Shown: positions 5,715 to 63,172, numbered from the stretch's first letter. The stretch: DNA of 64,000 nucleotides from Candidatus Latescibacterota bacterium (GCA_965215195.1 CBDCDC010000002.1:2496001-2560000), one strand, 5' to 3'. The notes: a model not told the origin generated them from the letters alone. Made by a program: numbers and translations.

Positions 5715-5823
5715 ACCGGCTCCTCGTCCAGCATCTGCCGCGCATAGGGTCAAAGTTGACGGAAAAATGCGGGCGGAATATCATTGGAACCCTAAAATAC
5801 ATCCAGCGAAAGCAGAGGCAATA

Positions 5824-8144: not shown

Positions 8145-8145
8145 C

Positions 8146-14351: not shown

Positions 14352-14406
14352 TTGGGCTAACGTGCAGAATTTGGTGTGCTGGTGTGCTCTTTCTTTGAGA
14401 GGTCCT

Positions 14407-17634: not shown

Positions 17635-17641
17635 GAGTACC

Positions 17642-20085: not shown

Positions 20086-20525
20086 TGCCATCCAGCATCT
20101 TCTTTGCAACTTTCTTTTTGCTAGTCGCTTGCGGCCGCGAAGAAGTGCCGCTGCTCGCGGTGCATCAGATATTGCACAAAACCGGAGCAACCTTGCAGGA
20201 GCGCCTCGGCGAGCCGGATTTCGGCTTTGCGCGCTCCGAGAAAGTAACCACCCTCCAGTGGCGAGATGCCGATGGAGATAGCACTTGGGTTTACGTGGAT
20301 TTGCTACACGGCAGCGCGTCTTATGTGACCTATACCTTCAAAAACATGGACCCCTTTGATACGGCAGAGGCACTGCGGCGCATTGGCCTGTCCGTGCCGG
20401 AGCAAGAGCCAGAACACGTCTGGGAAAACGGCTCTAAGCGCTGGAAGCCCTTCGGCCAATACCACCGTTTGGTGGTCAATCCGGTTACCAAAGTCGTCAC
20501 TGTAAGCCTCAACTTCGAGCAATAG
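20085..20525 (+). CDS. hypothetical lipoprotein
   Basis: GTG overlaps the previous stop; lipobox LLVAC. Confidence 0.7.
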   Translation: MPSSIFFATFFLLVACGREEVPLLAVHQILHKTGATLQERLGEPDFGFARSEKVTTLQWRDADGDSTWVYVDLLHGSASYVTYTFKNMDPFDTAEALRRIGLSVPEQEPEHVWENGSKRWKPFGQYHRLVVNPVTKVVTVSLNFEQ

Positions 20526-20532: not shown

Positions 20533-22584
20533 ATGAAAGTCATGCCAGCGGTAGTGGGTTTTGTTCTGGCGGTGCTTGCGCCCGCGGCGGCGGCCGAGTG
20601 GCAGATCGCGCAGTGGGAGCAGATCGTCTACTACCGGCTTACCTTCAATGCGGCTCAAGCGACACCGGCTGCCTTGCGCCTGACCGCAGTCGATGAATAC
20701 GAGGTTTTTCTCAACGGCGACTCAATGGGCCGCGATAGCGACTGGACGACCGTAGAGGAACTAGCGGTCGAACTGCAAGGCGGCCCTAACCATCTAGCCG
20801 TGCGCGTGGAAAACCGGGGACAGGGCAACGGCAGCGGTCTGATCGTCGAAGTGGTCGCTGGCGAACAGGTGTGGCTGAGTACTACCAGCGGTCTACAGGA
20901 GGTCTGGCGTTGGAGCGGCCATCCCCAGCAAGGCACCGACTGGCTGACTGCGGATGTCGGCGAGATAGCAGGGTGGACAACGGTGCAGCGCGGTCGGCTG
21001 GAGCGCCACCGGCTTTCCGGCTGGGACGACGCCCGCGCAGCGGAAGTAATCGCTGGCTATCCCGGGGGCGTTGACGTGGGCGGCGACGGGCTGAGCTTGC
21101 GCACGGTCGAGGGCGAAAACCTCGCACTGAGTCAGTCGGCAAACCGGCCGGAGGTATTTGACGGCCAAGCCGAAAGCGTCTGGACGATCGAACCCGACGA
21201 GCTGAACAGCTTTGCCCGCGTCGATCTGGGCATCCAGCGCTTGATAGGCGAAGTGCGGGTCTTTACCGCCGGAAAAAATGCCGCAGACTTTGCCGCCAAC
21301 ACCCTACAGGGATATGCCGTCGAGGTCAGCAACGACGGTTTTCAGTGGCGCGAAGTCGGCGCCATTAGCGGCATTGCCGATTTTGCGCAAACCGCCGTTG
21401 CCTTTGAGCCGATCTTCGGCCGCTTTTTGCGCGTGGTCGCCATCGAACTCGATCCACTGCGGCGGGCCCGCGTCGCCGATATTCAGGTGACCGGGCAGGG
21501 GGTGGCCCCGGCGGGCACTTTCACTTCGGCACCGCTGGACCTGGGCTTGCCCGGCCAGCGCAAGCTCTACGACCGCTTTCGCTGGACCGGACAGCGGCCC
21601 GCCGGCACCGCCCTGAGCGTGCAGTTCCGCACTTCGCACGACGGCCTCACCTGGAGCGACTGGAGCCCTGAGACCGACGCCCCAGAAGCCGCTGTGCAGG
21701 TGCCCGAACCGCGAGACTTGCTGCAATATCGGGTCAATTTCTCCACTGATTTCGAAGACGTCGGCCCGCGCCTAGACAGTCTGATCATTGCTTTCTCCGA
21801 GCAGACGCCCGCCTCGGCCGCCCGCGTGCGGGTGGAACCGAACCGGGGGGTAGTGGGGCGCGAGGCCGAATTCGTCTATCACCTCGAAGTCGAAATCGAA
21901 GAGGGCGATTTGGGCGTGGAGCGCATCCGCATCGCTATGCCGAGCCTAGCCGAAGTGACAGAAATTGTGCCACCCCCGGGGATGGAAGTCGCCCGCACCA
22001 CTATTGCGGGAGACGCGCTGGAGTTGGTATGGGCCGATCCCTGGCGCCAGTCTGGCCAGTTGCAACTGCGTTTCAGGGCGCGGTTGCTGACCAACCAGTT
22101 CGCCTTTTTCACGCGCCTTTTTAGCCCACAGGCAGCTATCTCACTCGATGCCGAGGAGAACGCCGCCTCTGATCCAGCCACCGGAGCCCGGTACTCTTGG
22201 AGTGTGCGGGCGCTCGACGCGTTTGGGCCGATATTGGACCAAGTGCGGACCAACCCGCCCGTTTTCACCCCCAACGGCGACCATATCAACGACCATACCG
22301 TCGTTGAATTCGTCCTCTCCCGGGTCAGTGTGCCGCAGAAAATCGACGTGGACATTTTCGACTTGGGGGGCCGCTTGGTGCGCCAGCTAAACACCGGCTC
22401 GCTGGGCGGCGGCCAATACGTGCGCCCTCCAGCCGGAGGCGACCCGGCGCTCAGCCCGGGTTTTTGGGACGGCCGCGACGACGACGGCACCTTGGTGGCA
22501 CCGGGCCTATACCTCGTGCGGGTGCGGGCCCAATTGGATCAGGGCGACAAAACCGCAGTATGCACCGCAGCGGTGCTGTACTGA
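20533..22584 (+). CDS. exported discoidin (F5/8C)-like protein with FlgD-Ig/T9SS-like C-terminal domain
   Basis: Signal peptide; YAVEVSNDGFQW..GRFLRV; C-terminal VFTPNGDHIND..IFDLGGRLVR..WDGRDDDG.LVAPGLY. Confidence 0.8.
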   Translation: MKVMPAVVGFVLAVLAPAAAAEWQIAQWEQIVYYRLTFNAAQATPAALRLTAVDEYEVFLNGDSMGRDSDWTTVEELAVELQGGPNHLAVRVENRGQGNGSGLIVEVVAGEQVWLSTTSGLQEVWRWSGHPQQGTDWLTADVGEIAGWTTVQRGRLERHRLSGWDDARAAEVIAGYPGGVDVGGDGLSLRTVEGENLALSQSANRPEVFDGQAESVWTIEPDELNSFARVDLGIQRLIGEVRVFTAGKNAADFAANTLQGYAVEVSNDGFQWREVGAISGIADFAQTAVAFEPIFGRFLRVVAIELDPLRRARVADIQVTGQGVAPAGTFTSAPLDLGLPGQRKLYDRFRWTGQRPAGTALSVQFRTSHDGLTWSDWSPETDAPEAAVQVPEPRDLLQYRVNFSTDFEDVGPRLDSLIIAFSEQTPASAARVRVEPNRGVVGREAEFVYHLEVEIEEGDLGVERIRIAMPSLAEVTEIVPPPGMEVARTTIAGDALELVWADPWRQSGQLQLRFRARLLTNQFAFFTRLFSPQAAISLDAEENAASDPATGARYSWSVRALDAFGPILDQVRTNPPVFTPNGDHINDHTVVEFVLSRVSVPQKIDVDIFDLGGRLVRQLNTGSLGGGQYVRPPAGGDPALSPGFWDGRDDDGTLVAPGLYLVRVRAQLDQGDKTAVCTAAVLY

Positions 22585-22585: not shown

Positions 22586-25291
22586 ATGCGCTACCTTAAA
22601 ACAACCTGCCTGTTTTTGCTAGTGCTGAGCGGCTTTTTTGACCGCTCCCACGGCCAGTACCTCAACCGCGAATACTATCCCCTGTGGGCCAACGAGGAGT
22701 ACGAGAACTACGCTCATTTTTCCTACCGCGATATCCGTCTGCGGCGCCTAGCCGGCGGCTTCTTCCTCGACGAGGAGACGCGCGTTTACGACCCCTTTGG
22801 CTTCACCCTGCTCAACGGGGCCGATCTCTACCGCACCCAAGAATTCCGCACCATTTCGCCTTTTGGCGGCAGCATCATTTTTAAGGATGACGCCTACCGA
22901 GACCTTTTTCAGAATCTGGTCGTCGCCAGTGATTCCTATCAGGACTGGGGTTCGTCGGTCATCCTCGGCCGGGCCGTGGAGGCTCGCTTCAAGCCCATGA
23001 TGTTATCGATCAACCGCATGAATGGCATCCGCTGGGACTCCAATTCGCAGCGCAACCGCTTCACGGTGTTGGGCTCGCGCATTTCCGATCCCCTGCGCAA
23101 CTTCGCTTCTTCGCGGCCGCTCGACTTTGCGACCTATCTCTTCGGCGGACACTGGAAAACCCAGATCGGCAGCGTCTTGCAATTTGGTGCTTCGTACGTC
23201 AATACCCATATCACCGACACCTTGCTGGGGCGTCGGGAGGGCTCTTTCCGCAAAGGCGCTTTCCCCACCAACTTGGTCACACCCAGCGAAGTTTTTCTCG
23301 CCATCAGCGATGATTCGCCCGACGATGGCGTTGGTGCCCAAGTCCACGATGTACAGATGATCGTCAATGGCCAGCCCAGCCAGACAGCTCCAGAAGTGCG
23401 CCGAATCGCCGATCTGGTGTCCCTAGGCAAAGATCGGCGCATGATTTCCGCCCGTCTGCGTCTCGAAGACGTGCCACACCTGCGCCGCCGGCAGTCTTGG
23501 CTACCGCACACCGTTGGTTTCGGTAGTCTTTTCGGTTCGCGCGGCGGCCTGTTCAGCAGTGCCGAAGTAGTGGAGTTAGACGGCGAAGATGCCCTCCAAG
23601 CCGACGGCTACAGCGTATTGCTGTTCCGCTTTGCAGTGCCGCCCGAGGCCGAACATATCTCCTTTAGGGTCCTAGCGGCCAACGACTATGCCATCGACCT
23701 AGGGGCCCCCATCGGCCGGAGCGGCGTGGCCGGCTCAGCGTGGGAAGACTGGCGCAATGTGGTGCGGGCCGAGGGCAACGTCCGCAACGGTTCGAATATG
23801 GGCTGGGTTGAGTTCGACTACGGCTTCCCCTCGGGTCTGGAACTCTACGGCGCCAATCTCGAACTGGATCTGCTCGGCTTTGAAGTGCGCGGCGACCTCA
23901 ATACCAGCACCCACCACCTCATCTTTCCCGCCCAAGAGGGCCGCCGGCACAAGCGACCGGTACGCGCTTATTCGCTACAGGGCAAGCGCCTGTTGGCGAA
24001 CTTCGCCGTGGGCTGGGAGCTGTTCCGAGTACCACCCCAATACCGCACCTCTTTCACTTATTTCGACGAATTCGTACCCGCCCTGAAAGAATTCGCATTA
24101 GTCGATGACAACGACGATCTGGACCCTTGGCCCGATTCTTGGGAACACGACGATCCCCTAAACCTGCGCTTCCACAACGACATCACCGAGGCGGCCATTG
24201 AGGTCAAAGAAAACCTCTTTCCCGGCTCCCTGCGCGACGTCGGCTTCGGGGTATTCCCCGGCCTAGATGACAACGGCGACGGCATCTTCGACACCAATGT
24301 CAACGACAATCTGCTGCCCGACTACCAAGAGCCCTTTCTCATGTACTTCGTCGAGTCTGAAGACTTCGTGTACGGCGACGATTTCAACAACAACGGCGTG
24401 ATCGACTCGCGCGAAAACGACAACAAACCCGACTACCCGTACGAGCGCGACAGCAAAGGGCAGCACGTATTCTTTACCTTCAACCCCACTTCCCAGCTCG
24501 AGTTGCGGCTGGGCGGACACGCCATCGAACAAATTGCCGGGGGAGGGCGCAATCGCGCCTTGTACGCCAAACTCGAGTACAGCCGACCCCTGTTCGACCG
24601 CATCCACCTAAACCTGCGCCACCGCAGCAAACGCGTACAGGACGATATCCCCGACCCGCTCTACCAATACGCGTCCAATCCGCTGCTGCGGGGCCGCTAC
24701 GAAATCGGCTTGCGCGACGATCCCTTGCGTTACCGCAACAGCCATGCCCATCTGAGCTATGTGAAATTCAACTACACCGGCGTCGACCACCTGACGCTCA
24801 ACAATACTTGGCGCTGGGAACTCAACCACCGCTTTGCCGACGGCCAGACGCAAAATTCGGGCAATGACTGGTCTCTGGCCTTAGTAAATCGGGTCGACTA
24901 CGTCTGGCAGCCGCGCCAGCAACTGACCCTGACCCCCATGCTCAAATGGACCTATCGCCGCTCAGCCTCAGCACTACTGGGCGACCTAGTGGACGAGACC
25001 AATCTAGCGCCGATTGTGCGGCTCAATTTTTTCTTGACCAAACGCACCACCATAAAGGCCGGCATCCAAGGCTTTCCCCTCTTGAAGCATCGCTTGCGCG
25101 ATGCCGTGGCCCCCTCCGACGATTTCAATGCTTGGCACTATATCATCGGCTTGCACAACAATAGCAGCTACACCGGCTACCGGATCAGCATGAACCTAGG
25201 ACTGCGAAAATCCTTTACCGACTTTGTCCACTCCAGCACGACCGGCACGGTGGAGACTTCGGAGTTTTTCCTGCAGGTGAGGACGAATTGA
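22586..25291 (+). CDS. exported beta-rich protein with Asp-rich block, paralog 1 (putative outer-membrane protein)
   Basis: Signal peptide, amphipathic beta segments, GVFPGLDDNGDG..DTN.N.N..PDY.EPFL. Confidence 0.75.
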   Translation: MRYLKTTCLFLLVLSGFFDRSHGQYLNREYYPLWANEEYENYAHFSYRDIRLRRLAGGFFLDEETRVYDPFGFTLLNGADLYRTQEFRTISPFGGSIIFKDDAYRDLFQNLVVASDSYQDWGSSVILGRAVEARFKPMMLSINRMNGIRWDSNSQRNRFTVLGSRISDPLRNFASSRPLDFATYLFGGHWKTQIGSVLQFGASYVNTHITDTLLGRREGSFRKGAFPTNLVTPSEVFLAISDDSPDDGVGAQVHDVQMIVNGQPSQTAPEVRRIADLVSLGKDRRMISARLRLEDVPHLRRRQSWLPHTVGFGSLFGSRGGLFSSAEVVELDGEDALQADGYSVLLFRFAVPPEAEHISFRVLAANDYAIDLGAPIGRSGVAGSAWEDWRNVVRAEGNVRNGSNMGWVEFDYGFPSGLELYGANLELDLLGFEVRGDLNTSTHHLIFPAQEGRRHKRPVRAYSLQGKRLLANFAVGWELFRVPPQYRTSFTYFDEFVPALKEFALVDDNDDLDPWPDSWEHDDPLNLRFHNDITEAAIEVKENLFPGSLRDVGFGVFPGLDDNGDGIFDTNVNDNLLPDYQEPFLMYFVESEDFVYGDDFNNNGVIDSRENDNKPDYPYERDSKGQHVFFTFNPTSQLELRLGGHAIEQIAGGGRNRALYAKLEYSRPLFDRIHLNLRHRSKRVQDDIPDPLYQYASNPLLRGRYEIGLRDDPLRYRNSHAHLSYVKFNYTGVDHLTLNNTWRWELNHRFADGQTQNSGNDWSLALVNRVDYVWQPRQQLTLTPMLKWTYRRSASALLGDLVDETNLAPIVRLNFFLTKRTTIKAGIQGFPLLKHRLRDAVAPSDDFNAWHYIIGLHNNSSYTGYRISMNLGLRKSFTDFVHSSTTGTVETSEFFLQVRTN

Positions 25292-25295
25292 GTCC

Positions 25296-28022
25296 ATGCT
25301 GAAAGCGATCTCAATAGGCGCACTTATAGCGGCCCTAGCGACGATGGTGCGCGGCGAAGGCGAGCCTAGGCTTGTCGAGCCCCACACCACCGGCACCCGC
25401 CTGATGCTCTACCGCCCCGGCCTACTCACCTACGACAACTACGGCCTAGAGGGCTACCGGACTTGGCCGCGCAATGTCATCACGCGCACGGCCAACCCGG
25501 TGTACGACGAGTTCGGCGACTTTCTGGTAAACGGCGTTGAGGTGTACCACCTGCGGGAAAACCGCCGCTTCGACGATCCGGCCCAAGTATTCAGCGGCAG
25601 CACCATTGCCAAGCCGAACAATTACGAAGGGTTTCTCAACCGCCTGATGGTGGCCGACGACAGCTATAATAGCTGGCAGACGCGGCTGATCATCGGCGAT
25701 CGCATTCGCACCCACTTCTCGCCGTTGATCCTAGATCTGGCCGCCCTCAATGGCATCCGCTGGGACCTAGCCAGTGAAAGGCACAACTTCTCGGTCCTCG
25801 CCTCGCGCATGGACAGGCCCGTACTGTCCCAAGAGGACGCCAGCGCCCTGAGCACGGCCGCCTTTGCCTCGTACCTGTTGGGCGGCCACTGGCAATGGCG
25901 CTGGCGCACCATTGACCTGAGTACCTCTTATGTCAATCTCTTCCGCATTGACACCCGCTCGCCGCCCGATTGGAACGGCATGAAGGGTCAGTTGCCCAAC
26001 CGAGTACAGGTAATCGACTACTTGGTGGTGCGCATTGAAGACACCTCGCCTTTGGACGGCGACGGGGCCCGGGTCTTTGCCGTCAATATCCTGCTCAACG
26101 GCGAGCGGCGAGACGACATTGAGCCTTTTGTCACGCGCCACAACACCGAGGATTTTAATCCTAACTTTCCCAACAAGGACTTCTTCTTCAAACGGCCGAT
26201 TCCGCCCTACGTGGAAGTGTTGCAGGGCCGCCGCTTGGGCACCTATCCGCTGCAGCCCCCCGAACCCGGTGGTTTTTTCCGCGCCGATGGCAAGAACTAT
26301 GTCCTGTTCTGGTTCCCGCTGCCCGAGGACGAGGAAGTGGTGTCGGCCTCCTTCGAGGCCCTGCTGAGCGGCAATTATCGCGTCAGCGCGTCGGAGGTCT
26401 ACGCGGTTGACCCGCGCGAATCCCGCAGTGAACCGGCTCAGCGCAACCGCGCAACTTTTTACAAAAGTTTGGCCGGCGCCAAAGGACGCGGGTCCGCCGG
26501 CGCCGATATTGAGCAGATCCGCTTTGACTACGGCCGCCAGACCGGACTCACCTTGGCGGGCCTAGGCCTGAGCACGGACGTAAAAGGCTTCCGCTTCAAG
26601 GGCGAGTGGGCCCACAGCTTCAACTTCCTCCAGTACCCCGTCCACGATCACCGCGGCCGGCGTCACGACCGCGGTGGCCACGCCTATCTGTTCAATATCG
26701 AGCGGGAATTAACCCGGAAAATTGCCGTGGGCGGGGAGCTATTTCGCCTCGACCCCGAGTACCGGACGCAGCTTTCGGTGACCGACCTGACGCTGGGGGC
26801 CTACGCGGCCGCTGGCACCGGGCCATTCGCCGGTGCGCTAGGTTCGACCGACGAGAGCCTGAACAATACCCTCGACCTGAACACCGTTGACGACAACGAC
26901 GACAAGGATCCTTTTCCAGACGATTTCTTTATACCCAGTTTCGAGGACCAAAACGGGGTTTTCCCCGGCCTAGACAAGGACCAAGACGGCACCCCCGACA
27001 CCAACCGCAATCGCAACCAAGTACCCGATTACTTCGAGCCCTTTTTGCTCTACGACGTCGATCCCGACGACTTCGACTACGGCGACGACCTGAACAACAA
27101 TGGCGTCATTGACGTGCGCGAAAACGACGACAAGCCGGACTACCCGTACGACCTCAACCGCCAAGGCTACCACGTCTTTGTGCGCCTTCAGCCCCAGCGC
27201 GTACTGGAACTGACCTTCGGGCGCTACGATATGGAAGCCATCTGGGGCGGCCAACGGGCGGATGTGTGGTACGCCAAAGCCGAGTACCAGCGGCGCTTCG
27301 GTAGCTGGGGCCAACTGCGGGCCGTGGACTTCTTCAAGCGGGTGCAGGACGATATTCCCGACGGGGTATTCCGCTTTGGCGACGTAGCCAATTTCGCCAT
27401 CTTTAATCCGCGTGCCACCATTGAAACTTTTGTCGAAGACGAGTTGTTGCTGCAGGACAGCGCCGTCAACACCGCCTTCATCGACTTCGCCTTTCGGGGG
27501 GTGCGCAACCTCTTTATCGGGACCAATCTCAAGTTTGAAGTCAACCGGCAGCTCACTGCCAACAGCGGCGACAATGCGATTCAGCTATGGACCTCGGTGT
27601 TGCGCGCAGATTACCGCTGGCGCTTGGGCGGGCTAGAAGTATCGCCGCGCTACAAGCTCATGCTGCGCCGCCGCACCGACGCCGCCGGGCGCATTCAGCC
27701 GCTGTCCGAGGTCTTCGGCTTTCCCATGATAGTGGCCGACTTCAAATTCACCGAGCGCACCTTCCTGCGCGGCGGCCTCCAGGGGCTATCCGCGCTGCCT
27801 AGCATCTACCGCAATGGCCAAAATCAGGACCAAGACTACAACACCCGCGATGCGCTCTTCATGCTGGTCAATCGCTTTGAATACGCTGGTTTCGACATGG
27901 CGCTTACGGCCGGCTACGAGATTAGCCGACGCCGCATGAAGGACCGCACGCGGAAATTCGCGGATATTGATTTCGAACAGTTTTTTATCCGCATGGTCGT
28001 GGGACTGGAGCCGGTGCAATAA
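25296..28022 (+). CDS. exported beta-rich protein with Asp-rich block, paralog 2
   Basis: Same conserved blocks as 22586..25291. Confidence 0.75.
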   Translation: MLKAISIGALIAALATMVRGEGEPRLVEPHTTGTRLMLYRPGLLTYDNYGLEGYRTWPRNVITRTANPVYDEFGDFLVNGVEVYHLRENRRFDDPAQVFSGSTIAKPNNYEGFLNRLMVADDSYNSWQTRLIIGDRIRTHFSPLILDLAALNGIRWDLASERHNFSVLASRMDRPVLSQEDASALSTAAFASYLLGGHWQWRWRTIDLSTSYVNLFRIDTRSPPDWNGMKGQLPNRVQVIDYLVVRIEDTSPLDGDGARVFAVNILLNGERRDDIEPFVTRHNTEDFNPNFPNKDFFFKRPIPPYVEVLQGRRLGTYPLQPPEPGGFFRADGKNYVLFWFPLPEDEEVVSASFEALLSGNYRVSASEVYAVDPRESRSEPAQRNRATFYKSLAGAKGRGSAGADIEQIRFDYGRQTGLTLAGLGLSTDVKGFRFKGEWAHSFNFLQYPVHDHRGRRHDRGGHAYLFNIERELTRKIAVGGELFRLDPEYRTQLSVTDLTLGAYAAAGTGPFAGALGSTDESLNNTLDLNTVDDNDDKDPFPDDFFIPSFEDQNGVFPGLDKDQDGTPDTNRNRNQVPDYFEPFLLYDVDPDDFDYGDDLNNNGVIDVRENDDKPDYPYDLNRQGYHVFVRLQPQRVLELTFGRYDMEAIWGGQRADVWYAKAEYQRRFGSWGQLRAVDFFKRVQDDIPDGVFRFGDVANFAIFNPRATIETFVEDELLLQDSAVNTAFIDFAFRGVRNLFIGTNLKFEVNRQLTANSGDNAIQLWTSVLRADYRWRLGGLEVSPRYKLMLRRRTDAAGRIQPLSEVFGFPMIVADFKFTERTFLRGGLQGLSALPSIYRNGQNQDQDYNTRDALFMLVNRFEYAGFDMALTAGYEISRRRMKDRTRKFADIDFEQFFIRMVVGLEPVQ

Positions 28023-30067
28023 TGTGGACGAAAACAGCTACCCAGTTGCGCCCATTGCTACTGGCTACAGCCTTGCTGGTGGGCAGCGCGGGCCACGCCG
28101 AGGAATGGACCGTTGACCAGTGGGAGCAGGCCGTGTACTACCGGCATACCCTCAATGCACCCGAGGCCGGCGCCGCCCTGCTGCGCCTGACCGCGATAGA
28201 CGAATACGAGATTTTCCTCAACGGCGAAGCCATCAGCAGCGACGACAATTGGACCACTATGGAAGAGTACCCGGTCGAGCTCAAGCGACGCAAAAACGAG
28301 CTGGCCGTGCGCGTCGTCAATCGCGGCGAGGGCCACGGCAGCGGCCTCGTTGTGGAGGTGAGCACCGCACAGCAGTCATGGGTCAGCACCTTTGGTGCTT
28401 TGCAAAATTTGTGGTACTGGAGCGGCGAACCCCAAGCAGACGCGGGTTGGCAGACAACGGATGTGAGCCGGCTAGACGCCTGGCAGCCAGTGCAGCGCGG
28501 CCAGCTAGACAGGACGGGCGTATCCGGCTGGTCCGATACGCTGAAGGCAGATGTAATCGCCGGCTTTCCCGGTGGCATCGACATAGGCCAGCCAGCCGGC
28601 GGCTTGAGCTTGCGTTCAGTGGAGGGAGAAAACCTAGCGTTGAGGCTGCCCTCCAACCGCCCGGAAGTATTCGACGGCCGCTCCAATACCGGCTGGACCG
28701 TAGATCCGACCGAGTTGAACGCCATGGCCCGAGTGGATCTGTTGCACCGGCGTCTAATCAGCGAGGTACGGGTCCTGACCCAAGGCCGGAACGCCGACGA
28801 GTTTGTCCAGAATACCCTGCGCGGCTATGCCGTCCAAGTGAGTAACGATCAGTTTGAGTGGCGCGAGGTGGGCGTACTGCACGGCATTGCTCAGCCCGAG
28901 CGCACCGCCATTGCCTTTGCCCCGCTCTTGGCCCGTTACCTGCAAGTGATCATCGCCGAAGTCGATGCGGTGCAGCGCGCCAAAGTAGCCGAGATTCAGG
29001 TGCTGGGCAGGGGTATTGCCCCAGCGGGCCGCTTTGTCTCTCCGCCCCTAGACTTGGGACAGCCCGGAGAACGCAAGAATTTCACCTCCGCGCACTGGGA
29101 TGGCCAAGTGCCGGCCGGCACTGCGCTCGGGCTGCAATTCCGCAGCTCGAATGACGGCAGCACTTGGAGCGGCTGGAGTGCGCCTGTGCATACTAGCCCG
29201 GCGCTGCTGCAAGTGCCCGAACCGCGCACTTTCCTGCAGTACCGAGTCCAGATGGAAACTCAATCCGAAGAGCTGGGCCCGCGCCTGGACCGTCTGATTG
29301 TCGACTTCACCGACCAAGTGCCGGCCTCGCGGGTCCGCGGCTGGGTTGAGCCCAATCGGGCCGTGCTGGGCCGCGATACCCTTTTCACGTATCGCCTAGA
29401 GCTAAATTTCAGTGCGGACGATCTGGGGGTGGAGCGGGTGCGCGTTGCCCTGCCCAGTCAGATCGAGCTAGAGGAAATTGTGCCCCCGCTTGGAGTGGAA
29501 ATCGCCGCAAACACAGCATCGAGCACCGCGCTGGAGCTAGTACTAGCCGAGCCTTGGCACCAAGCGGGTATCCTAGAAGTGCGCTTTCGCGGACGGCTGC
29601 TGAGCCATGCCTTCGAGTTCCGCGCCCAAGTTTCTGGTCCAGACGGGGGCGCGACACTCGATGCCGAAGAGAACGTTGAACCCGATCCACACAGCGGTCA
29701 GCCGCGCTCTTGGCAGGTGTCGGCCAGCGGTGTCGCGGGGGCCCTGTTGAGTCAAGTGCGCCCGGTACCAAAGGCATTCAGCCCCAACGGCGACGGTATC
29801 AACGACGCAACAGCGATCGAATTCACCTTGGCGCGGGTGAGCGAGCCCCAACCAGTAGAAGTGGACATATTCGATGTCGAGGGCCGACCTGTGCGCGCCC
29901 TATATGCCGGCCCCCTGAGCGCGGGCGAATACTCCGCGCCGGGCCTGTGGGACGGCAGGGACGATGCCGGCGAACTGGTGGCACCAGGACTCTACCTAGT
30001 GCGCGTGCGGATCCTTCTGGAGCGCAAACAAGAAAGCCGCCTGCGCACCGTAGCCGTGGCGTACTGA
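28022..30067 (+). CDS. exported discoidin-like protein with FlgD-Ig/T9SS-like CTD, paralog of 20533..22584
   Basis: Full-length colinear similarity (QWEQ.VYYR, LRLTA.DEYE.FLNG, VEGENLAL, VPEPR..LQYRV, FSPNGDGIND). Confidence 0.8.
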   Translation: MWTKTATQLRPLLLATALLVGSAGHAEEWTVDQWEQAVYYRHTLNAPEAGAALLRLTAIDEYEIFLNGEAISSDDNWTTMEEYPVELKRRKNELAVRVVNRGEGHGSGLVVEVSTAQQSWVSTFGALQNLWYWSGEPQADAGWQTTDVSRLDAWQPVQRGQLDRTGVSGWSDTLKADVIAGFPGGIDIGQPAGGLSLRSVEGENLALRLPSNRPEVFDGRSNTGWTVDPTELNAMARVDLLHRRLISEVRVLTQGRNADEFVQNTLRGYAVQVSNDQFEWREVGVLHGIAQPERTAIAFAPLLARYLQVIIAEVDAVQRAKVAEIQVLGRGIAPAGRFVSPPLDLGQPGERKNFTSAHWDGQVPAGTALGLQFRSSNDGSTWSGWSAPVHTSPALLQVPEPRTFLQYRVQMETQSEELGPRLDRLIVDFTDQVPASRVRGWVEPNRAVLGRDTLFTYRLELNFSADDLGVERVRVALPSQIELEEIVPPLGVEIAANTASSTALELVLAEPWHQAGILEVRFRGRLLSHAFEFRAQVSGPDGGATLDAEENVEPDPHSGQPRSWQVSASGVAGALLSQVRPVPKAFSPNGDGINDATAIEFTLARVSEPQPVEVDIFDVEGRPVRALYAGPLSAGEYSAPGLWDGRDDAGELVAPGLYLVRVRILLERKQESRLRTVAVAY

Positions 30068-30083
30068 TGGAAATGGGCCCATC

Positions 30084-33020
30084 GTGAAAAAACCGACAAT
30101 ACAAATCGGCCGCGTACTCCCAGTGCTGCTGTGGGCAATAGTCCCGAGCTGGGCAGAAACGCCGCGCCTGGGCATTCCCGAGATTCTGCCCTCCCAAGAC
30201 TTTCTCGGGCGGCAGTTGCCCCAGTACAATAACTACGCCTTTCAGGGCTATTCCAACTACCCGGACCACACCTTCCCCTACGCCGACCGACCCCGGGCCT
30301 TCTACGATTCCTTCGGCGATCCCCTCATCACCGGGTACGACCTGTACGACTGGACCGAGCGCCGCACACTCGGTCAGGAATACGGCAGTAGCATTTTCAA
30401 GGATCGCAACCAGTGGAGCACGGTTTTCGATTTTCTGGTGGTGGGCCGCGACAGCTATAACAACTGGGGATACAGCGCCATTGTCGGCGATGGGCTGATT
30501 GCCCGCTTCACGCCGCTGACCCTGTCGCAAGTTGACTTTAATGGCACCCGCTTCGACTTGGCCACGCCCTACGCCCGCTTCACCTTCTTGGGATCGCGCA
30601 TCGAGCGCCCCCATTTTTACGTTGAATCCATTCCCCCTTGGGCCATCGAAAATACGCACTTTGCCGACGCTTCGACCATGCTGCTGGGGAGCCGGCTGGA
30701 GACGGATATTGGGGCCTTGCGGCTGGGCCTGAACGGCGTGAACACGCACGTGTACCAAAGCACCCAAGACGACAACAGCCTCAAAGGCTCTCTGAGGCCC
30801 AGCCTGCCGTCCATGGACCAGATTGTGGTGCGCTTTACCGACGACTCGCCCCAAGACGGCCGCGGCGGGGCCTTGGTGCAGGAAGCGCAACTCGTACTCA
30901 ACGGCGAAGCCCGGCCCGATATCGCGCCAACAGTGATTCGCCATTCCGAAGGCGTGGATACGCAGGTGGGCACTATCTCCCGGCTGACCGGCCAATTCAA
31001 CCCGACCATTTACACCAACCCCCGGGGGTATTACCAGACAGCCACGCTCTACTACCGCGGCCGAAGCGATATGCCGCTCTTTGCCGATTACCTCTATCGC
31101 GCCGACCACGAGGCCGGCCTTGACGTGAGTAAGAATACCAACCTCGAAGGTTTGCTGGCTGCCTTCAAACTCGAATCGTCTGAGGAGATCCTACGAGCCG
31201 ACGGCAACGAGCAATTGGTGTTCCTCTTCGATTTGTCGCAGGAGCCTTACGTGGAATCAGTGGCCGTGGAAGCGGCGCTGGCCAACGACTACCGGGTAGA
31301 AGTGGCCACCCTCCATCTCAACAACCCGCGGGGACGCGGCTATCCCAACCAGTACGTGAGCACATTCTACCGGCCTGTCCTGCGCGCCGAGGGCAATGTG
31401 CAGGACGGCACCAATCTAGCCAGAAAGCGGATCAATGTGGGCGAAAACACGGCGCTTTTCACCTACAGTGCCGATATGCAGCTTGCCCTAGCCGGCCTCG
31501 AAATCAACGGCGAGTACGCCCGCTCAGCGCGCTACTCCCGCTTTCCAGCGCGCATGGACGAGACCGCCCTGTACGATCGGGGACCGCGTTTTTCCGAGAA
31601 AGGATCGGCCTATTTCATCAATGCCGTGCGCTGGTTCGCGGGAGGCCGCTTGGGGGCCGAAGCCTTTGCCGTGAACCCAGACTTCCACACGGAAATGCGC
31701 ACCTTTGTACCATTCGAAATCGGTTTGACAGAGACTTCGCTGGCCGGCCTGACCAACAACACCATCTTCTGGGACCTGGTGCAGGACAACGAGGACGGCG
31801 ACCGCTACCCAGACAAGCGCGTGGGCAACCTGCAGGGGCAGCCCAACGACCGCGAAGACGAGGACGTCGACGGCGTATTTCCCGGGCAGGACGACGACAA
31901 CGACGGCCTGCCCGACACCAATCGCAACTTCAACGATGTGCCCGACTACGTCGAGCCCTTCCTCATGTACTACGTCGAATCCAACGACTTCTTCTACGGC
32001 CTCGACCGCAACAACAACGACGATCCCGACGTGCGCGAGGACGATCTGGACCCCGACTACCCCTACGACTCCGACCAGCGCGGCTTCCACCTATTCGGCC
32101 AGCTAGATCTGACGCCCCAGTGGTCTTTGGGGGTGGGGCGCTACGACATCGAACAAATCGCCGGCGGCGGGCGCAACGAGTCGAGCTACGCACTGGTGAA
32201 CTACCGGCGCGAAGGGCTGGGGCGGCTGCAGCGGCTGTTTTTCGAAAACCACCTGCGCCGCGTCAAAGACGATATCGCCGACGAATTCTCCGTGCTGGTC
32301 GAACGACCGCGGCGCGTAGATACGGATTTTCGCGGCCTGACCGCCGGCAACAAGCCCTCTTTCACCAATAATTTCCGCGCCGATCCGCTGCTGTATCGCA
32401 ACAGCTACGTCAACGAGACCTACCTGGAGAGCTGGCTCAATCCCTGGTCCACCCTTCAGATGGTCCACAAAATCCGCCTGCGTCTCAACTGGCAACGAGC
32501 CGGCTCTTTGCCCGGCGGCCTAGTCCAGCGCGACAAACGGCTCGACTTCTTCACTTGGGTCAGCCGCGCCGACTACACTTGGCATTGGCACCGGCTGCAG
32601 ATCCAACCCCAGTTCAAGGTCCTGCTGCTGCGCCTAGTCGATCGGGCCGCCGATCGCCAAACCGATGGCCACTACGCCCGCCGCACCGTGCGCTCGGAGT
32701 TCAGCGTCATTCCCATCCTGCGCTGTACCCTGCCGCTGATGCAGCGCAGCCAACTACAGCTAGGCATCCAAGGCTTGGGGCCGCTGCCCTACCGGGTCGA
32801 GGACCGGGTCAATGCACGCAACAGTTTTGACCAGCGCACCTTGTATCTCAACGTGAACAATCGCTCGAAGTACTTCGGCTACGATCTGCGCACGATCGTG
32901 GGGTTGCAGCGGGAGGTCAAGGCATTCGACGAGGAATCGCGGGCGGACGATGCCTTTGATGCGCTGACTTTTTTCGCCCGCGTCCTCATCGGCTTCACCG
33001 AATATGGACGGCTCCTATAA
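30084..33020 (+). CDS. exported beta-rich protein with Asp-rich block, paralog 3
   Basis: Same conserved blocks; signal peptide ending SWA. Confidence 0.75.
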   Translation: MKKPTIQIGRVLPVLLWAIVPSWAETPRLGIPEILPSQDFLGRQLPQYNNYAFQGYSNYPDHTFPYADRPRAFYDSFGDPLITGYDLYDWTERRTLGQEYGSSIFKDRNQWSTVFDFLVVGRDSYNNWGYSAIVGDGLIARFTPLTLSQVDFNGTRFDLATPYARFTFLGSRIERPHFYVESIPPWAIENTHFADASTMLLGSRLETDIGALRLGLNGVNTHVYQSTQDDNSLKGSLRPSLPSMDQIVVRFTDDSPQDGRGGALVQEAQLVLNGEARPDIAPTVIRHSEGVDTQVGTISRLTGQFNPTIYTNPRGYYQTATLYYRGRSDMPLFADYLYRADHEAGLDVSKNTNLEGLLAAFKLESSEEILRADGNEQLVFLFDLSQEPYVESVAVEAALANDYRVEVATLHLNNPRGRGYPNQYVSTFYRPVLRAEGNVQDGTNLARKRINVGENTALFTYSADMQLALAGLEINGEYARSARYSRFPARMDETALYDRGPRFSEKGSAYFINAVRWFAGGRLGAEAFAVNPDFHTEMRTFVPFEIGLTETSLAGLTNNTIFWDLVQDNEDGDRYPDKRVGNLQGQPNDREDEDVDGVFPGQDDDNDGLPDTNRNFNDVPDYVEPFLMYYVESNDFFYGLDRNNNDDPDVREDDLDPDYPYDSDQRGFHLFGQLDLTPQWSLGVGRYDIEQIAGGGRNESSYALVNYRREGLGRLQRLFFENHLRRVKDDIADEFSVLVERPRRVDTDFRGLTAGNKPSFTNNFRADPLLYRNSYVNETYLESWLNPWSTLQMVHKIRLRLNWQRAGSLPGGLVQRDKRLDFFTWVSRADYTWHWHRLQIQPQFKVLLLRLVDRAADRQTDGHYARRTVRSEFSVIPILRCTLPLMQRSQLQLGIQGLGPLPYRVEDRVNARNSFDQRTLYLNVNNRSKYFGYDLRTIVGLQREVKAFDEESRADDAFDALTFFARVLIGFTEYGRLL

Positions 33021-33045: not shown

Positions 33046-34596
33046 ATGATTTCTCCCATCCGCAACCAGCGCCCCCCCTACAAATTGCCGTCGCATATTA
33101 TCTACTTTCACGACTGGCGCTACGTCCATCACGGCAGCCATTCGACCGGCTGGCGCAACGCGGCCGGGGATTGGCTGCGCATCTGGACCAACGACGAGAG
33201 GCCACCCCTGCTACACGAGCCGAATTACATGCCCAGCGGCATTCGCCTGTGCGCCAAACCGGCGACTAAGAGCGAGCCTTTCCTGCTGCCGGCCGCGGAC
33301 GAAGGCTTTATCTGGCCCGGCACCGTGCTTTGCACAGAGGGAGGCTACCGTCTCTGGTACGAGTTGTTCGCGGGCGAACACATCGGCCACGAAAAGTACC
33401 CCATAGGCGCGGCCAACTACGTCTGCTACGCCGAATCGGACGACGGTGAAAACTGGCGTTTTCCCGCGCAGGGGCGGATCGAGCGCAAGGGCACCAAGGA
33501 CAACAACATTGTTTACGGGCTGCCTCAGATCGAAGAGACCGGTTTGCACGGTGCCACGGTGTTCGAGGATGCGTCGGCCTATGCTGCGGAGCGCTACAAA
33601 ATGATCTACGTGGGCCAGCTAAGTGCGGCGCAAAAGGAGCACTACCTGCAACAGAGGCCCGGCGAAGTGGGGGCACTCAATCTGGAAGCAGAACAGTGGG
33701 ACGGCCTGTTCGGCGCCATCTCGCCCGATGGCTTTAGCTGGACGCCCATCGCCGAGCCGCTCGTCGCCCAAATCAGCGACACCCACAATGTCTGCGAGTA
33801 CGATCCCGTGCTGGGACAGTACGTGGCCTATTGCCGCAGCCATTTCTTCAACCGCCGCAGCATTGGTCGCACCGCTTGTGCGGATTTCCGCCGCCTGCCC
33901 CTGTCCGAGGAAGTCTTCTGGCCCAACGCCGCGGCCGAACCCTACGATTTGTGGTACGCCAATTCCAAGACAAAAATGCCGGGCACCACCGACTATCACC
34001 TCATGTTCCCCCTGCGCTGGCGCTTGATCGACGACTCCTTCAGCTTTGTGCTGGCCGCCAGTCCGGACAATGTGGTGTGGAACTTCGTGCCCGGCGGACC
34101 AGTGTGCGAACCCGGCGATGGGGGCGCATGGGTCGAGGGCGCGGTGTCAGCCGGCGTCGGCCTAGTGCCATTGCCCGGCGAGCGCATGGGCATCACTATA
34201 TGCGGCTCGCCGGAACCGCACAAGCACCTGCGCCAGCCGCCGCACGGGCACATTGCCTGGGCCTGGTGGCCCAAGGGACGGCTCGCGGCCTTGGAAGCAC
34301 CGGTAGAGGGGCGCTTCCGAACCTTTCAGCTAGCAATTGAGCAGCGCCGCGTCCACCTCAACTTCAAGACCGCGCCCGGAGGCAGCGTAAAGGTGCAGGT
34401 CATGGACCGCAAGTACCAGCCCCTGCCCGGCCGCTCCTTCGCGGACTGCGACTGGCTGGTGGGCGACCAGCTAGACCGCGAAGTGAGTTGGCAAGGCGCG
34501 GCCGACCTAGGCCACCAAGGCGAGGGGCCGATCTCGCTGGGCTTTGAGATCCGCTGCGGCGAGCTCTACAGCGTCGAATTCAAAAATCCCGACTGA
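33046..34596 (+). CDS. five-bladed beta-propeller glycosidase-like protein (GH32/43-like fold)
   Basis: CYAESDDGENW, RYKM, SPDGFSW, YDPVLGQY, plus a C-terminal beta-sandwich; no signal peptide. Confidence 0.65.
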   Translation: MISPIRNQRPPYKLPSHIIYFHDWRYVHHGSHSTGWRNAAGDWLRIWTNDERPPLLHEPNYMPSGIRLCAKPATKSEPFLLPAADEGFIWPGTVLCTEGGYRLWYELFAGEHIGHEKYPIGAANYVCYAESDDGENWRFPAQGRIERKGTKDNNIVYGLPQIEETGLHGATVFEDASAYAAERYKMIYVGQLSAAQKEHYLQQRPGEVGALNLEAEQWDGLFGAISPDGFSWTPIAEPLVAQISDTHNVCEYDPVLGQYVAYCRSHFFNRRSIGRTACADFRRLPLSEEVFWPNAAAEPYDLWYANSKTKMPGTTDYHLMFPLRWRLIDDSFSFVLAASPDNVVWNFVPGGPVCEPGDGGAWVEGAVSAGVGLVPLPGERMGITICGSPEPHKHLRQPPHGHIAWAWWPKGRLAALEAPVEGRFRTFQLAIEQRRVHLNFKTAPGGSVKVQVMDRKYQPLPGRSFADCDWLVGDQLDREVSWQGAADLGHQGEGPISLGFEIRCGELYSVEFKNPD

Positions 34597-34869
34597 TCGC
34601 GCCGAGAACTTGAGACATTCGCACTCGGCGGTTTGTACATGCCGTCTTATGGAACAAGGCGCTGAGCGAGCAATACCAGACTCAAGTGCTTGGAAAATTA
34701 GGCGCGAGAACCTCTTAACAAAATGCTTGACAGGCTCGTCTAAAAGTCATATCTCCTTACGAACAAATGCGGCGATAAGCCTATTACCTATCTCAACTTA
34801 TTAATTTTTATTGAGTTATTGATTTTGCGGAAGGTAGTCATTCACTTTTTCTCAAACAAAGGAGGCACC

Positions 34870-60041: not shown

Positions 60042-60053
60042 AGCGAAGCCCCA

Positions 60054-60812: not shown

Positions 60813-60930
60813 CGGCTTTATCTCCTTGCCAATCCCCGCACTCGCTCCCATTGCTCAAAGCAGAAGCATTGCTCGGGGAAAATCGGCTGTTTTCTATGAC
60901 AATATGAAGATAAAAAAACCCACGCAATCC

Positions 60931-60970
60931 AAAAAGCAAAGGGCCGCCGACCGCTTGGCCGACCGCCCTT
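60931..60970 (-). terminator. probable intrinsic terminator after the EF-G-like gene
   Basis: AAGGGCGGTCGGCC-AAGC-GGTCGGCGGCCCTT followed by TGCTTTTT. Confidence 0.55.
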
Positions 60971-60992
60971 CACAACGGGTAAAGCAAGTCGC

Positions 60993-63062: not shown

Positions 63063-63141
63063 TTTGACCCCTCCTGAATTTAAGAGAAGTGCTTAATTAA
63101 TTGGCCTACATTGGCGTTGTCAAGGTATTTTCATAAGACAT

Positions 63142-63172
63142 AAAAAAAGCCCACCCCTAAAGGGATGGGCTT
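63142..63172 (-). terminator. rRNA operon intrinsic terminator
   Basis: AAGCCCATCCC-TTTA-GGGGTGGGCTTTTTTT immediately after 5S. Confidence 0.85.

Follow-up and report, generated by a model that had tools for sequence, protein, structure and literature searches.

Three Paralogous Proteins of a Candidatus Latescibacterota Locus Represent a Family of Predicted Giant Outer-Membrane Barrels with a Conserved Ca-Binding-Like Insert

Identification of the Three Paralogous Proteins

A stretch of 64,000 nucleotides from a Candidatus Latescibacterota bacterium (GCA_965215195.1, CBDCDC010000002.1:2496001-2560000), referred to here as the window, holds three genes whose products were described in an earlier note, made from the DNA sequence alone, as divergent paralogs of an unrecognised family of exported proteins that share a conserved Asp-rich block. 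Here we report computational analyses of these proteins, of their relatives in other genomes and of the genes that surround them, and we discuss the functions that they may have. All three open reading frames (ORFs) are found on the + strand at the positions first proposed for them. Paralog A (P0001; 22586..25291, +; 901 amino acids, aa), delimited by its ORF, translation, alignment and place in the tree, is the first gene of the triad and a member of subfamily A; paralog B (P0002; 25296..28022, +; 908 aa), the protein that was used for structural modeling, is the second and a member of subfamily B; and paralog C (P0003; 30084..33020, +; 978 aa), which has a GTG start, is the third and a member of subfamily C. 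The N-termini of all three, read by eye, are signal-peptide-like, with a hydrophobic core followed by a small-residue site (e.g., ...ALATMVRG/EGE in P0002), which agrees with the proposal that the proteins are exported.

Judged from their sequences, P0001, P0002, and P0003 are clear paralogs, with pairwise identities of 31.8%, 31.6%, and 30.0% over 864-992 columns in BLASTP comparisons (E-values of 4.6e-99, 3.6e-97, and 1.1e-102). All of the ordered blocks on which the claim of paralogy had been based correspond to invariant columns of a three-way MAFFT alignment (viz., in P0001 numbering, Y68, D69, F71, G72, L75, G78, Y82, E86, and R88; L111, V113, D116, S117, Y118, W121, I126, and G128; N146, G147, R149, and D151; F159, L162, S164, and R165; D242, S244, P245, D247, and G248; A339, D340, and G341; and V506, D508, N509, D511, D513, P516, and D517). 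The invariant run GVFPG...PDYPY occupies residues 555-619 of P0001, and two further invariant residues near the C-terminus, F894 and F895, sit in the last strand and are followed by 6-15 residues in the three proteins; the C-terminal beta-signal of outer-membrane barrels ends in an aromatic residue. Comparison with the ~92% identical orthologs in another locus (L001) gave ratios of non-synonymous to synonymous substitution rates of 0.14 (A), 0.12 (B), and 0.15 (C), and these low values indicate that the genes are real and under purifying selection.

The description of the family as unrecognised is also borne out, as none of the three proteins reaches a Pfam or NCBIfam cut-off. No Pfam match was found for P0001 and P0002, NCBIfam gave nothing meaningful for any of the three, and P0003 matches the Pfam family SlpA_C over residues 428-549 with 20.9 bits, where the cut-off is 35.

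Predicted Fold of the Three Proteins

AlphaFold2 modeling of P0002 on an alignment of 92 sequences, drawn from the exhaustive hidden Markov model (HMM) search described below, gave a predicted local distance difference test score (pLDDT) of 86 and a predicted template-modeling score (pTM) of 0.86; an earlier run on 30 sequences had given a pLDDT of 72.5. Assignment of secondary structure to the model by DSSP places 23 long antiparallel strands between residues 117 and 904, and the number of strands in the predicted barrel is about 24. A region of conserved sequence precedes the first confident barrel strand (residues ~36-116 of B; 25401..25643, +), and its motifs (viz. Y.NYA...Y..Y, YD..G..L..G...Y...E.R, and GS.I.K) are kept in all four of the subfamilies described below. 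In the model, this N-terminal segment of ~80 residues must be either the 24th strand or a segment in the lumen. The idea that its Tyr-rich motif could be a TonB box was considered and rejected, since the motif is equally conserved in barrels of subfamily C that lack partner genes, and for the same reason a structural role is the more likely one.

Two long insertions interrupt the predicted barrel. The first, a beta-sandwich of ~185 residues (residues ~220-405 of B by DSSP; 25953..26510, +), is placed between two barrel strands, carries the D.SP.DG and ADG blocks, and consists of strands at residues 239-249, 258-267, 278-283, 334-341, 351-359, and 361-370, with pLDDT mostly above 85. The second is the Asp-rich block, with ~125 residues (about 497-621) that are mostly coil and have a pLDDT of 82-94. 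Read from strand parity in the DSSP string, the six two-residue turns all share the side of the C-terminus, opposite to that of both inserts. The C-terminus of outer-membrane barrels is periplasmic, and by this parity both inserts would be on the non-periplasmic side.

Searches of the two models against the PDB using Foldseek gave 64 and 51 matches at E <= 0.001, and for both models all of the matches listed are outer-membrane barrels. The best matches are to MtrB (E 3.8e-9) and to the Deinococcus radiodurans SlpA/SDBC structures (3e-8 to 5e-8), followed by LptD, BtuB, and Occ porins, with SusC (E about 1e-4) and SprA (24th) lower down. The template-modeling (TM) scores of these matches are low (0.11-0.40, the highest value of 0.40 being on the target), which indicates that the class of fold is clear, yet that no solved family is close. 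When profiles of the family were compared with PDB sequences, no outer-membrane protein, including SlpA, was found at E <= 1 or E <= 10. A search for fused forms among longer proteins (1590-4540 aa) found none for P0002, which is weak evidence.

Based on these models, the three proteins are very probably outer-membrane barrels. The expectation that they would prove to be large beta-barrels with inserted soluble domains is thus upheld by the long-strand model, its two inserts, and the listed Foldseek matches; the predicted structure is not a soluble non-barrel fold, and no confident full-length match to a characterised family was found in Pfam, NCBIfam, or profile searches of the PDB.

The Asp-Rich Block

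The Asp-rich block was delimited by a block HMM, the alignment, and motif counts at positions 24083..24454 (+) in A, 26868..27161 (+; residues ~525-622) in B, and 31761..32078 (+) in C, coordinates that lie within about 20 bases of those first given. It is the most conserved stretch of the whole family, with near-invariant columns, and the block HMM matches 136 of 141 barrel ORFs from 67 sources. The loops of the block in B are VDDNDDKD, DKDQDGTPD, and DLNNNGVIDVRE, the last of which is an example of a 12-residue EF-hand-type loop (D-x-[DN]-x-[DN]-G-x-x-D-x-x-E) that is present in 135 of the 136 blocks. A DxDxDG-like string occurs in all 136 of them and the string [DE]DN[DE]D.D in 119, and Asp makes up 21.5% of the block vs. 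8.1% of the whole protein. The only PDB entries found with a profile of the block are EF-hand proteins (viz. SCaMC-1 and ALG-2), at non-significant E-values of 0.03-2.

The conservation of these strings makes it a well-founded inference that the block binds Ca2+. A related arrangement has been described in parts of a study of D. radiodurans SlpA, a trimeric protein with large pore-lining insertions that are held by Asp metal sites (PMC9388160).

Range of the Family and its Border with SlpA

A word-indexed search found 27 relatives of the three proteins, none with a Pfam label and each, where a name was given, called "hypothetical protein." An exhaustive profile search yielded 880 clusters (50% identity) at E <= 1e-3, of which 605 have E <= 1e-10 and 292 have E <= 1e-30. 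In a scan of genomes, tblastn confirmed 517 of 613 pattern matches, a lower bound for the hits in genomes, and the 66 loci retained come, by their labels, from Latescibacterota (40), Gemmatimonadota (14), Ignavibacteriota (3), Bacteroidota (2), and unclassified bacteria (2), with one locus each from metagenome-assembled genomes (MAGs) labeled as KSB1, Zhuqueibacterota, Kryptoniota, Myxococcota, and Chloroflexota. The family is thus found mainly in Latescibacterota and Gemmatimonadota, together with a few loci from other phyla that belong mostly to the Fibrobacterota-Chlorobiota-Bacteroidota (FCB) group. The kept loci alone hold 9-11 barrel ORFs, fragments included, per single chromosome. Relatives also occur in lineages with cultured members, as a Gemmatimonas phototrophica MAG (L052) and loci of the Ignavibacterium type (L062) indicate. 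Two of the loci come from MAGs labeled outside of the FCB group, one with a Myxococcales label (L013) and the other a 2.4-kb contig with a Dehalococcoidia label (L055); the former holds a full operon of the Latescibacterota/Gemmatimonadota type, which makes mis-binning a likelier explanation than gene transfer.

None of 52 diverse family members matches any NCBIfam model, models of the type IX secretion system (T9SS) included. SlpA_C is the only recurrent Pfam match, found in 9 of these 52 members at E <= 0.01 (best E 2e-7), and in a search with a member of subfamily D the precomputed label PF21620.6 was carried by 13 of the 120 relatives listed. When 15 selected relatives were rescanned, 12 had a local match to SlpA_C that covers ~80 of the 656 model positions at about the cut-off (~35 bits), and a profile built from SlpA_C-labeled relatives found no SlpA chain by sequence. 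By this evidence, the family borders on SlpA_C but is not covered by the SlpA_C model.

These matches raise the question of whether the barrels are abundant general porins or structural outer-membrane proteins like SlpA and OmpM that lack a peptidoglycan tether, in which case the inserts would merely stabilise the fold and there would be no specific tie to neighboring genes. SlpA of D. radiodurans (PF21620; PDB 8ae1, 8agd, 7zgx) is likewise a very large single-chain outer-membrane barrel, its structures are among the top Foldseek matches of our models, and SlpA_C is the only Pfam family for which the barrels have a sequence signal (20.9 bits in P0003, and in the relatives described above). OmpM-type proteins reportedly double as nutrient channels. 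Parts of the study of SlpA describe metal-stabilised insertions inside the pore and argue that the protein acts as a scaffold (PMC9388160). However, the proteins of the window fall below the Pfam cut-off, the SlpA_C matches are local and at or below that cut-off, SlpA chains are not found by the family profiles, and the TM-scores against SlpA are only 0.16-0.22. The barrels are predicted to have about 24 strands vs. 30 in SlpA; they lack an SLH domain and a coiled-coil stalk, having only ~95 residues and no long helix before the barrel; and they occur within the FCB group, in three-paralog sets with a different gene neighborhood, whereas SlpA and OmpM are proteins of Deinococcus-Thermus and Terrabacteria. 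The tight conserved operon and the 9-11 copies per chromosome in different catabolic contexts (see below) argue for specialised rather than generic roles, and we regard the explanation of the barrels as general porins or structural proteins as unlikely.

Four Subfamilies and Their Gene Order

Of the 141 barrel ORFs, the 130 with lengths of 800-1300 aa were used to construct a FastTree tree, and the other 11 were excluded because of their length. The subfamilies were defined on this tree and gene position serves as an independent label. Clade A (support 99) contains P0001 and 27 rows in total (15 first-of-three, 11 first-of-two, and 1 single); clade B (support 100) contains P0002 and again 27 rows (15 second-of-three, 10 second-of-two, and 2 single); and clade C (support 100) contains P0003 and 54 rows, which include all 16 third-of-three barrels as well as many single barrels and sets made up of C-type barrels only. 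The other 22 rows, almost all of them single barrels, form a group D that is placed beside A. In an IQ-TREE analysis of 51 rows, A, B, and C each fall on one side of a branch with SH-aLRT support of 100, and D with support of 93.

Sixty-six sources could be typed in this way; one source that lacks a barrel of 800-1300 aa was not. The pattern ABC was observed in 19 loci, the window included, followed by D (17), C (10), AB (4), CCC (4), CC (3), A (2), and DD (2), and BC, ABCD, B, CAB, and CCCC were observed once each. In three of the four AB loci (L002, L009, L056), the contig ends within the third barrel or immediately beyond it; the fourth (L016) has no third barrel among its called ORFs. One of the two A loci is a 2.4-kb contig and the other (L011) has an ORF of 1850 aa that is likely B and C read through. 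This ORF, at ~9.9-15.5 kb of L011, is the single barrel ORF where B and C are normally separate and is followed by a tetratricopeptide repeat (TPR) protein gene that starts at 15521; it may be either a natural B-C fusion or the result of a missed stop or a frameshift in the MAG.

The phylogeny that had been suggested as a check on whether three subfamilies co-occur thus finds them nearly always together and in the order A-B-C. Judged from these trees and patterns, the split into subfamilies A, B, and C is old and their joint occurrence nearly constant, which fits a hetero-oligomer of the three, as had been proposed, but does not demonstrate one. SlpA and classical porins are trimers. The tandem C-type copies of three other loci (L048, L050, L057) group largely by their position in the locus and constitute a second, independent ordered triad.

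The Operon and Other Genes of the Window

The triad belongs to a row of genes on the + strand (14362-34596) that abut or overlap, with gaps of -184 to +25 bases when ORF starts are left uncorrected. The order of the genes is TPR protein, DUF4159 protein, lipoprotein, small lipoprotein-like ORF, lectin-like protein 1, A, B, lectin-like protein 2, C, and a protein that we term P6. The first gene (14362..17634, +) encodes a giant TPR protein (P0180, 1090 aa) that begins with a hydrophobic segment (anchor or signal) and in which Pfam recognises generic TPR families only, with repeated YbgF/CpoB- and BamD-like matches. The second (17591..18865, +; likely start near 17654) encodes a membrane-anchored protein (P0179) with a DUF4159 domain (Pfam, 103 bits) and a TonB/TolA-like layout, viz. 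an N-terminal transmembrane helix, a Pro/Lys-rich linker, and the DUF4159 domain. In the literature searched, mention of DUF4159 was found only in a Pfam database article. The third gene (18739..20085, +; likely start ATG 18862) encodes a lipoprotein (P0178) with the lipobox LLAGC, a middle domain (residues ~55-290) that belongs to no family and is present in 31 ORFs, and a C-terminal AgmX/PglI domain that is TonB-C-terminal-like and of the GltG/GltJ type (NCBIfam NF033768, 65.3 bits vs. a cut-off of 40). Elsewhere, a shorter form of P0178 is followed by a separate gene for a protein of ~310 aa (c18). In L011 and L063, where the ORFs are fused or over-long, the DUF4159 protein and the lipoprotein form a fusion; the notion that P0179 and P0178 could be paralogs, which arose from these ORFs, was rejected because direct BLASTP found no similarity between them. 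The fourth gene (19902..20525, +; likely start near 20085) encodes a small lipoprotein-like product (P0181) with the lipobox LVAC and no family, whose cluster holds 9 ORFs from 8 sources.

Two lectin-like secreted proteins are encoded next to the barrels. The first (P0004, 683 aa; 20533..22584, +) ends one base ahead of barrel A and has an F5_F8_type_C_2 domain (40.2 bits vs. a cut-off of 27.8) and a tail with FlgD_ig and CHU_C matches below the cut-off. The second (P0005, 681 aa; 28022..30067, +), which lies between B and C and is 54% identical to P0004, has an F5_F8_type_C domain (39.5 bits) and a tail that matches FlgD_ig with 30.6 bits (cut-off 27). The tails of these lectin-like proteins also have weak CHU_C and TIGR04131 signals of the type-B T9SS kind, and when the lectin-like protein was compared with PDB sequences, only FlgD was found (E 0.003, in the tail).

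The last gene of the row (33046..34596, +) encodes P6 (P0006, 516 aa), which has Asp-box-like SxDxGxxW strings, no signal peptide by eye, and no Pfam, NCBIfam, or PDB match. An atlas lead connects it with BNR_2/GH32-like clusters (0.92), with Planctomycetota and Latescibacterota as the commonest taxa, and it may represent a new cytoplasmic glycoside-hydrolase-like family. Copies of P6 (~500 aa) are found twice in the window (33046-34596, + and 44498-46180, -) and up to six times around the C-type triads of L048, L050, and L057.

Downstream of the operon, the window encodes a secreted protein with an FlgD_ig/T9SS type-A sorting tail (34819..36747, +; FlgD_ig 69.8 bits; TIGR04183 26.2 bits vs. 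a cut-off of 23), whose cluster is found in 27 sources, and an FG-GAP/ASPIC (UnbV) protein (37065..38558, +) from a family that recurs near barrels in 9 sources. The window near the operon also has the two P6 genes, a sulfatase gene, two PhyH genes, and a GFO/IDH/MocA gene. A 646-aa protein with DUF6785 and DUF6784 (39783-41723, +) belongs to a cluster that recurs in 7 barrel-holding sources.

A number of other features of the window were also observed. Two tandem, overlapping genes (8128-9264 and 9261-10202, +) encode Peptidase_S58 (DmpA-type) paralogs. An ORF for an AAA_21/AbiEii-type ATPase (4506-5753, -) overlaps the over-long N-terminus of an enolase-superfamily ORF (5389-7083), the true start of which is probably further downstream. 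Two ORFs of 751 aa (51618-53873, -) and 192 aa (41810-42388, +) match no Pfam family at E <= 0.05. Around EF-G and YebC-type genes in the final 4 kb (60001-64000), the G+C content drops from ~0.60 to 0.54.

Gene Neighborhoods Across the Loci

To describe the neighbors of the barrels, the typed loci were divided into those with A- and B-type barrels with or without C, denoted AB(C), those with D-type barrels, and those with C-type barrels only. The counts given here are lower bounds, as contig ends or the limit of the 10-kb flank truncate many of the loci. A gene for the lectin-like protein is present in 25 of 29 AB(C), 18 of 19 D, and 0 of 18 C-only loci; the corresponding numbers are 21/29, 16/19, and 1/18 for the TPR gene, 19/29, 14/19, and 1/18 for the DUF4159 gene, 19/29, 11/19, and 1/18 for the lipoprotein gene, 4/29, 6/19, and 1/18 for ExbB, 3/29, 4/19, and 1/18 for ExbD, and 0/29, 7/19, and 0/18 for a PorP/SprF/PorV-like gene. 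The single C-only positive for each gene is a truncated triad (L018), which leaves 17 genuine C-only loci.

Of the 43 sources with a lectin-like gene, 35 have it as the ORF immediately ahead of a barrel, and this constant association, together with the signals in the tail of the protein, suggests a second explanation for the barrels, that they are accessories of type IX secretion, which would receive, anchor, or help to export cargo with FlgD-Ig/T9SS tails in the way that PorP/SprF or PorV does in Bacteroidota. The FlgD_ig match of P0005 above its cut-off, the weaker CHU_C and TIGR04131 matches of the lectin-like tails, and the product of 34819-36747, which passes TIGR04183, are consistent with such a role, as is the presence of a PorP/SprF/PorV-like gene in 7 of the 19 D loci, in 5 of which it lies exactly between the lectin-like gene and the barrel. 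Parts of a published account name Gemmatimonadetes, Ignavibacteriota, and further phyla of the FCB group as possible carriers of T9SS (PMC11285876), and no literature was found that joins type IX secretion, Gemmatimonad, and Latescibacter. Nonetheless, neither the three proteins nor any of the 52 diverse relatives matches an NCBIfam or Pfam model of the PorV, PorP/SprF, or SprA type, the PorP/PorV-like match in the D loci belongs to a separate neighboring gene and not to the barrel, that gene is found in none of the 29 AB(C) loci, the 17 genuine C-only loci have no lectin-like gene, and SprA ranks only 24th in the Foldseek search. A T9SS accessory role is, in our estimate, very unlikely.

The TPR protein, found in 38 of the 67 sources, is the most constant neighbor, and in 30 of these sources its gene immediately follows a barrel. 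ExbB and ExbD genes lie inside of the operon in some D-type loci (e.g., L063 and L065). Eight of the 29 AB(C) loci have two small genes with products that belong to no family, one membrane-like (c10, ~185 aa) and one lipoprotein-like (c11, ~127 aa), between the TPR and DUF4159 genes (in L012, L014, L018, L040, L043, and others), which is the position of ExbB/ExbD in the D-type loci. The possibility that c10 and c11 are divergent forms of ExbB and ExbD was rejected, as hhalign gave a probability of <1%.

This set of neighbors recalls the Agl-Glt machinery of Myxococcus xanthus and related Tol and Ton systems. In a published AlphaFold model of Agl-Glt, GltD, a long TPR protein, is the docking site for TonB-C-terminal-domain-like parts of GltG and GltJ, and the adhesin CglB is held by the paralogous outer-membrane barrels GltA, GltB, GltH, and GltK (PMC11761067). 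Passages of another study describe a "core complex" of motor, TPR, and TonB-like components, of unknown function, outside of gliding bacteria (PMC3169522). By analogy, our barrels could be the outer-membrane module of an envelope-spanning machine of the Tol/Ton/Agl-Glt kind, in which a proton-driven ExbB/ExbD-type motor, a TPR scaffold, and TonB-C-like and DUF4159 connectors would act on the barrels and the barrels would hold the lectin-like protein as an adhesin, so that the machine would serve adhesion, surface movement, or tethering and not import. The points of likeness are the motor genes of the relatives, the long TPR protein and its constant position, the AgmX/PglI domain of P0178 (above its cut-off), the TonB/TolA-like layout of P0179, the paralogous barrels, and the adhesin-like protein. 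Only one domain is demonstrably shared, however: apart from this C-terminal domain there is no match to an NCBIfam Glt model, no match to GltD or GltE was found, and the barrels match nothing in these searches, being unrelated to the Glt barrels in size and sequence. Further, no ExbB or ExbD motor gene is present in the window, the AgmX/PglI domain is not kept across the family of the lipoprotein, and 17 genuine C-only loci have C-type barrels without any such partner. The barrels are three to four times larger than GltA and GltB, which also counts against this kinship. Taking both sides together, we consider an adhesion or motility machine rather unlikely. Prediction of complexes for residues 24-116 of barrel A and residues 38-460 of the TPR protein, with residues 300-448 of P0178 as the partner, gave a score of 0.00 in both runs, which is evidence neither way.

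The C-only loci differ in their neighbors, which include P6 (7 of 18 loci), PhyH (6/18), UxuA/TIM-barrel proteins (5/18), sulfatases (4/18), and enolase-superfamily proteins (4/18). A scan of the ORFs of at least 200 aa within three genes of the barrel in these loci covered 61 of 94 ORFs, the other 33 being already typed or from L018, and identified among the 61 proteins of the families GH32, GH38, GHL6, and DUF4838, another sulfatase, a Reg_prop hybrid two-component sensor, three GFO/IDH/MocA oxidoreductases, two xylose-isomerase-like proteins, and two PhyH proteins.

Discussion

Among the functions that we have considered, we tentatively favor, at a confidence that falls somewhat short of even, one in which the barrels are Ca-stabilised, specific channels for the uptake of glycans, possibly acidic or sulfated ones, with A, B, and C forming one working set together with the products of neighboring genes. 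The two inserts of each barrel would face the exterior of the cell or fold back into the pore, where the Asp/Asn-rich block with its three EF-hand/DxDxDG-like loops most likely binds Ca2+ and may rigidify a cap or constriction. The three paralogs could plausibly form a heterotrimer that resembles the trimers of porins or SlpA, the lectin-like neighbors, exported by T9SS, would feed the set, and in the periplasm the barrels may be coupled to three further products of their operon, viz. the TPR protein, the membrane-anchored DUF4159 protein, and the lipoprotein. In relatives, the operon also encodes an ExbB/ExbD motor. Our preference for uptake is based mainly on the catabolic contexts in which C-type barrels occur without partners; on the expansion of the family by paralogs, families of uptake channels being usually expanded in copy number; on the carbohydrate-binding-type domain of the constant upstream neighbor; and on the tight operon. 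The P6, sulfatase, PhyH, and GFO/IDH/MocA genes near the operon of the window point the same way. What the analyses show directly is that the proteins are paralogs with a predicted barrel fold and a conserved block, that they belong to three subfamilies with a constant gene order, and that their neighborhood is syntenic. The orientation of the inserts, the binding of Ca2+, the substrate, the oligomeric state, and the source of energy are inferred.

A number of observations weigh against glycan uptake or against parts of it, and they are gathered here. The genomic context on the basis of which a role in uptake, and with it a glycan substrate, is proposed is itself varied: 30 of the 61 scanned neighbors in C-only loci have no family at E <= 1e-10, the catabolic neighborhoods are heterogeneous, and the link of P6 to glycoside hydrolases is an atlas lead only. 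Domains of the F5/8 type C class bind many ligands, not only sugars. With regard to energy, no Plug or TonB-box family was detected by Pfam in the barrels or in 52 relatives, no homolog of ExbB, ExbD, c10, c11, c17, or c18 was found by tblastn in the 64-kb window, ExbB/ExbD genes lie within 10 kb in only 10 of the 48 AB(C) and D loci, and the AgmX/PglI domain of P0178 is limited to its ~11 closest homologs; the absence of ExbB/ExbD from the window and their presence near so few loci make energisation a weakly supported part of the proposal. With regard to structure, the number of strands, the closure of the barrel, its lumen, and the side on which the inserts lie were all read from the DSSP string and not from coordinates, and the segment before residue 117 of P0002 is modeled as short strands with a pLDDT of only 55-82. 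Lastly, the description of the Asp-rich block as Ca-binding-like in the earlier note has support at the level of motifs alone (the EF loop in 135 and the DxDxDG-like string in all of 136 blocks): the three proteins have no EF-hand or TSP_3 match in Pfam, and the block is modeled by AlphaFold2 as coil with three-residue helices and not as helix-loop-helix.

A bolder variant of the uptake proposal, which we deem improbable, would make A, B, and C an obligate heterotrimer in which the Ca2+-wired inserts act as a shared gate, and the trimer the outer-membrane end of an undescribed import machine for glycans that is coupled to the proton motive force and is composed of a T9SS-delivered lectin, a TPR scaffold, a DUF4159 transducer, a lipoprotein, and ExbB/ExbD. 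If it were true, such a machine would replace SusCD-type systems in Latescibacterota, Gemmatimonadota, and related phyla, and the second ordered triad found within subfamily C would reflect selection for three-membered assemblies.

Comparison with other known barrels places the proteins apart from each of them. MtrB of the Shewanella MtrCAB complex (PDB 6r2q_B), which has 26 strands and acts together with partners in the periplasm and at the surface, is the best Foldseek match of the better model, with TM-scores of 0.26 (query) and 0.34 (target); however, there is no match to the Pfam family MtrB_PioB, no multihaem cytochrome families were found among the ORFs of the window that were scanned, and MtrB is not known to have an Asp-rich insert. 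LptD (PDB 8h1s, 4q35), which needs a lipoprotein partner and is single-copy per genome, is likewise a large barrel and ranks 5-8 in the Foldseek search, and a lipoprotein gene is conserved in the operon of our barrels, but they have no LptD/OstA match in Pfam or NCBIfam, their TM-scores against LptD are 0.15-0.20, and they occur in many copies per genome. The barrels may work like the TonB-dependent transporters of SusC/SusD-type systems (PDB 5fq6, 8a9y), to which they are similar in the pairing of an outer-membrane barrel with a putative surface carbohydrate-binding protein, the expansion by paralogs, the catabolic neighbors, and, near some loci, ExbB/ExbD, and SusC is among the Foldseek matches. 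In contrast to SusC, the barrels lack Plug (PF07715) and TonB_dep_Rec (PF00593) at E <= 0.1, as do the 52 relatives at E <= 0.01, and there is no SusD-like gene adjacent to them, the partner being a secreted F5/8 type C protein with a signal peptide and a T9SS-like tail and not a lipoprotein.

Because they lack the features by which SlpA (score at the cut-off, SLH domain, coiled coil), TonB-dependent transporters (Plug, TonB_dep_Rec), MtrB/PioB, LptD, and T9SS barrels were tested for, we assign these proteins to a new family of giant outer-membrane barrels. Its novel characteristics are the invariant Ca-binding-like insert, the ordered triads, and the association with lectin-like cargo of the T9SS type and with the set of TPR, DUF4159, and lipoprotein genes. 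No description of this family was found in the literature searched, in a search that was not exhaustive, and in the parts consulted of a 2015 analysis of Latescibacteria genomes, no proteins of this kind other than non-specific porins and receptors with a Plug domain are mentioned.

The machinery of the outer membrane for uptake, and that of the cell surface, is well mapped in Proteobacteria and Bacteroidota, whereas it is, to our knowledge, almost unknown in Latescibacterota, Gemmatimonadota, KSB1, Ignavibacteriota, and related phyla, abundant bacteria of which most have not been cultured. Our analyses define in them a large family that no Pfam or NCBIfam model covers, which makes it a candidate for the building of a family in these databases, and its conserved Ca-binding-like signature and confident structural model can be used for annotation. 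If the barrels are channels for the uptake of glycans, they would fill in, for these phyla, the step at the outer membrane that is missing from what is known of polysaccharide use; if they are instead part of an envelope-spanning machine, that system would be a new one; and in either case, the association described here would provide a functional context for DUF4159.

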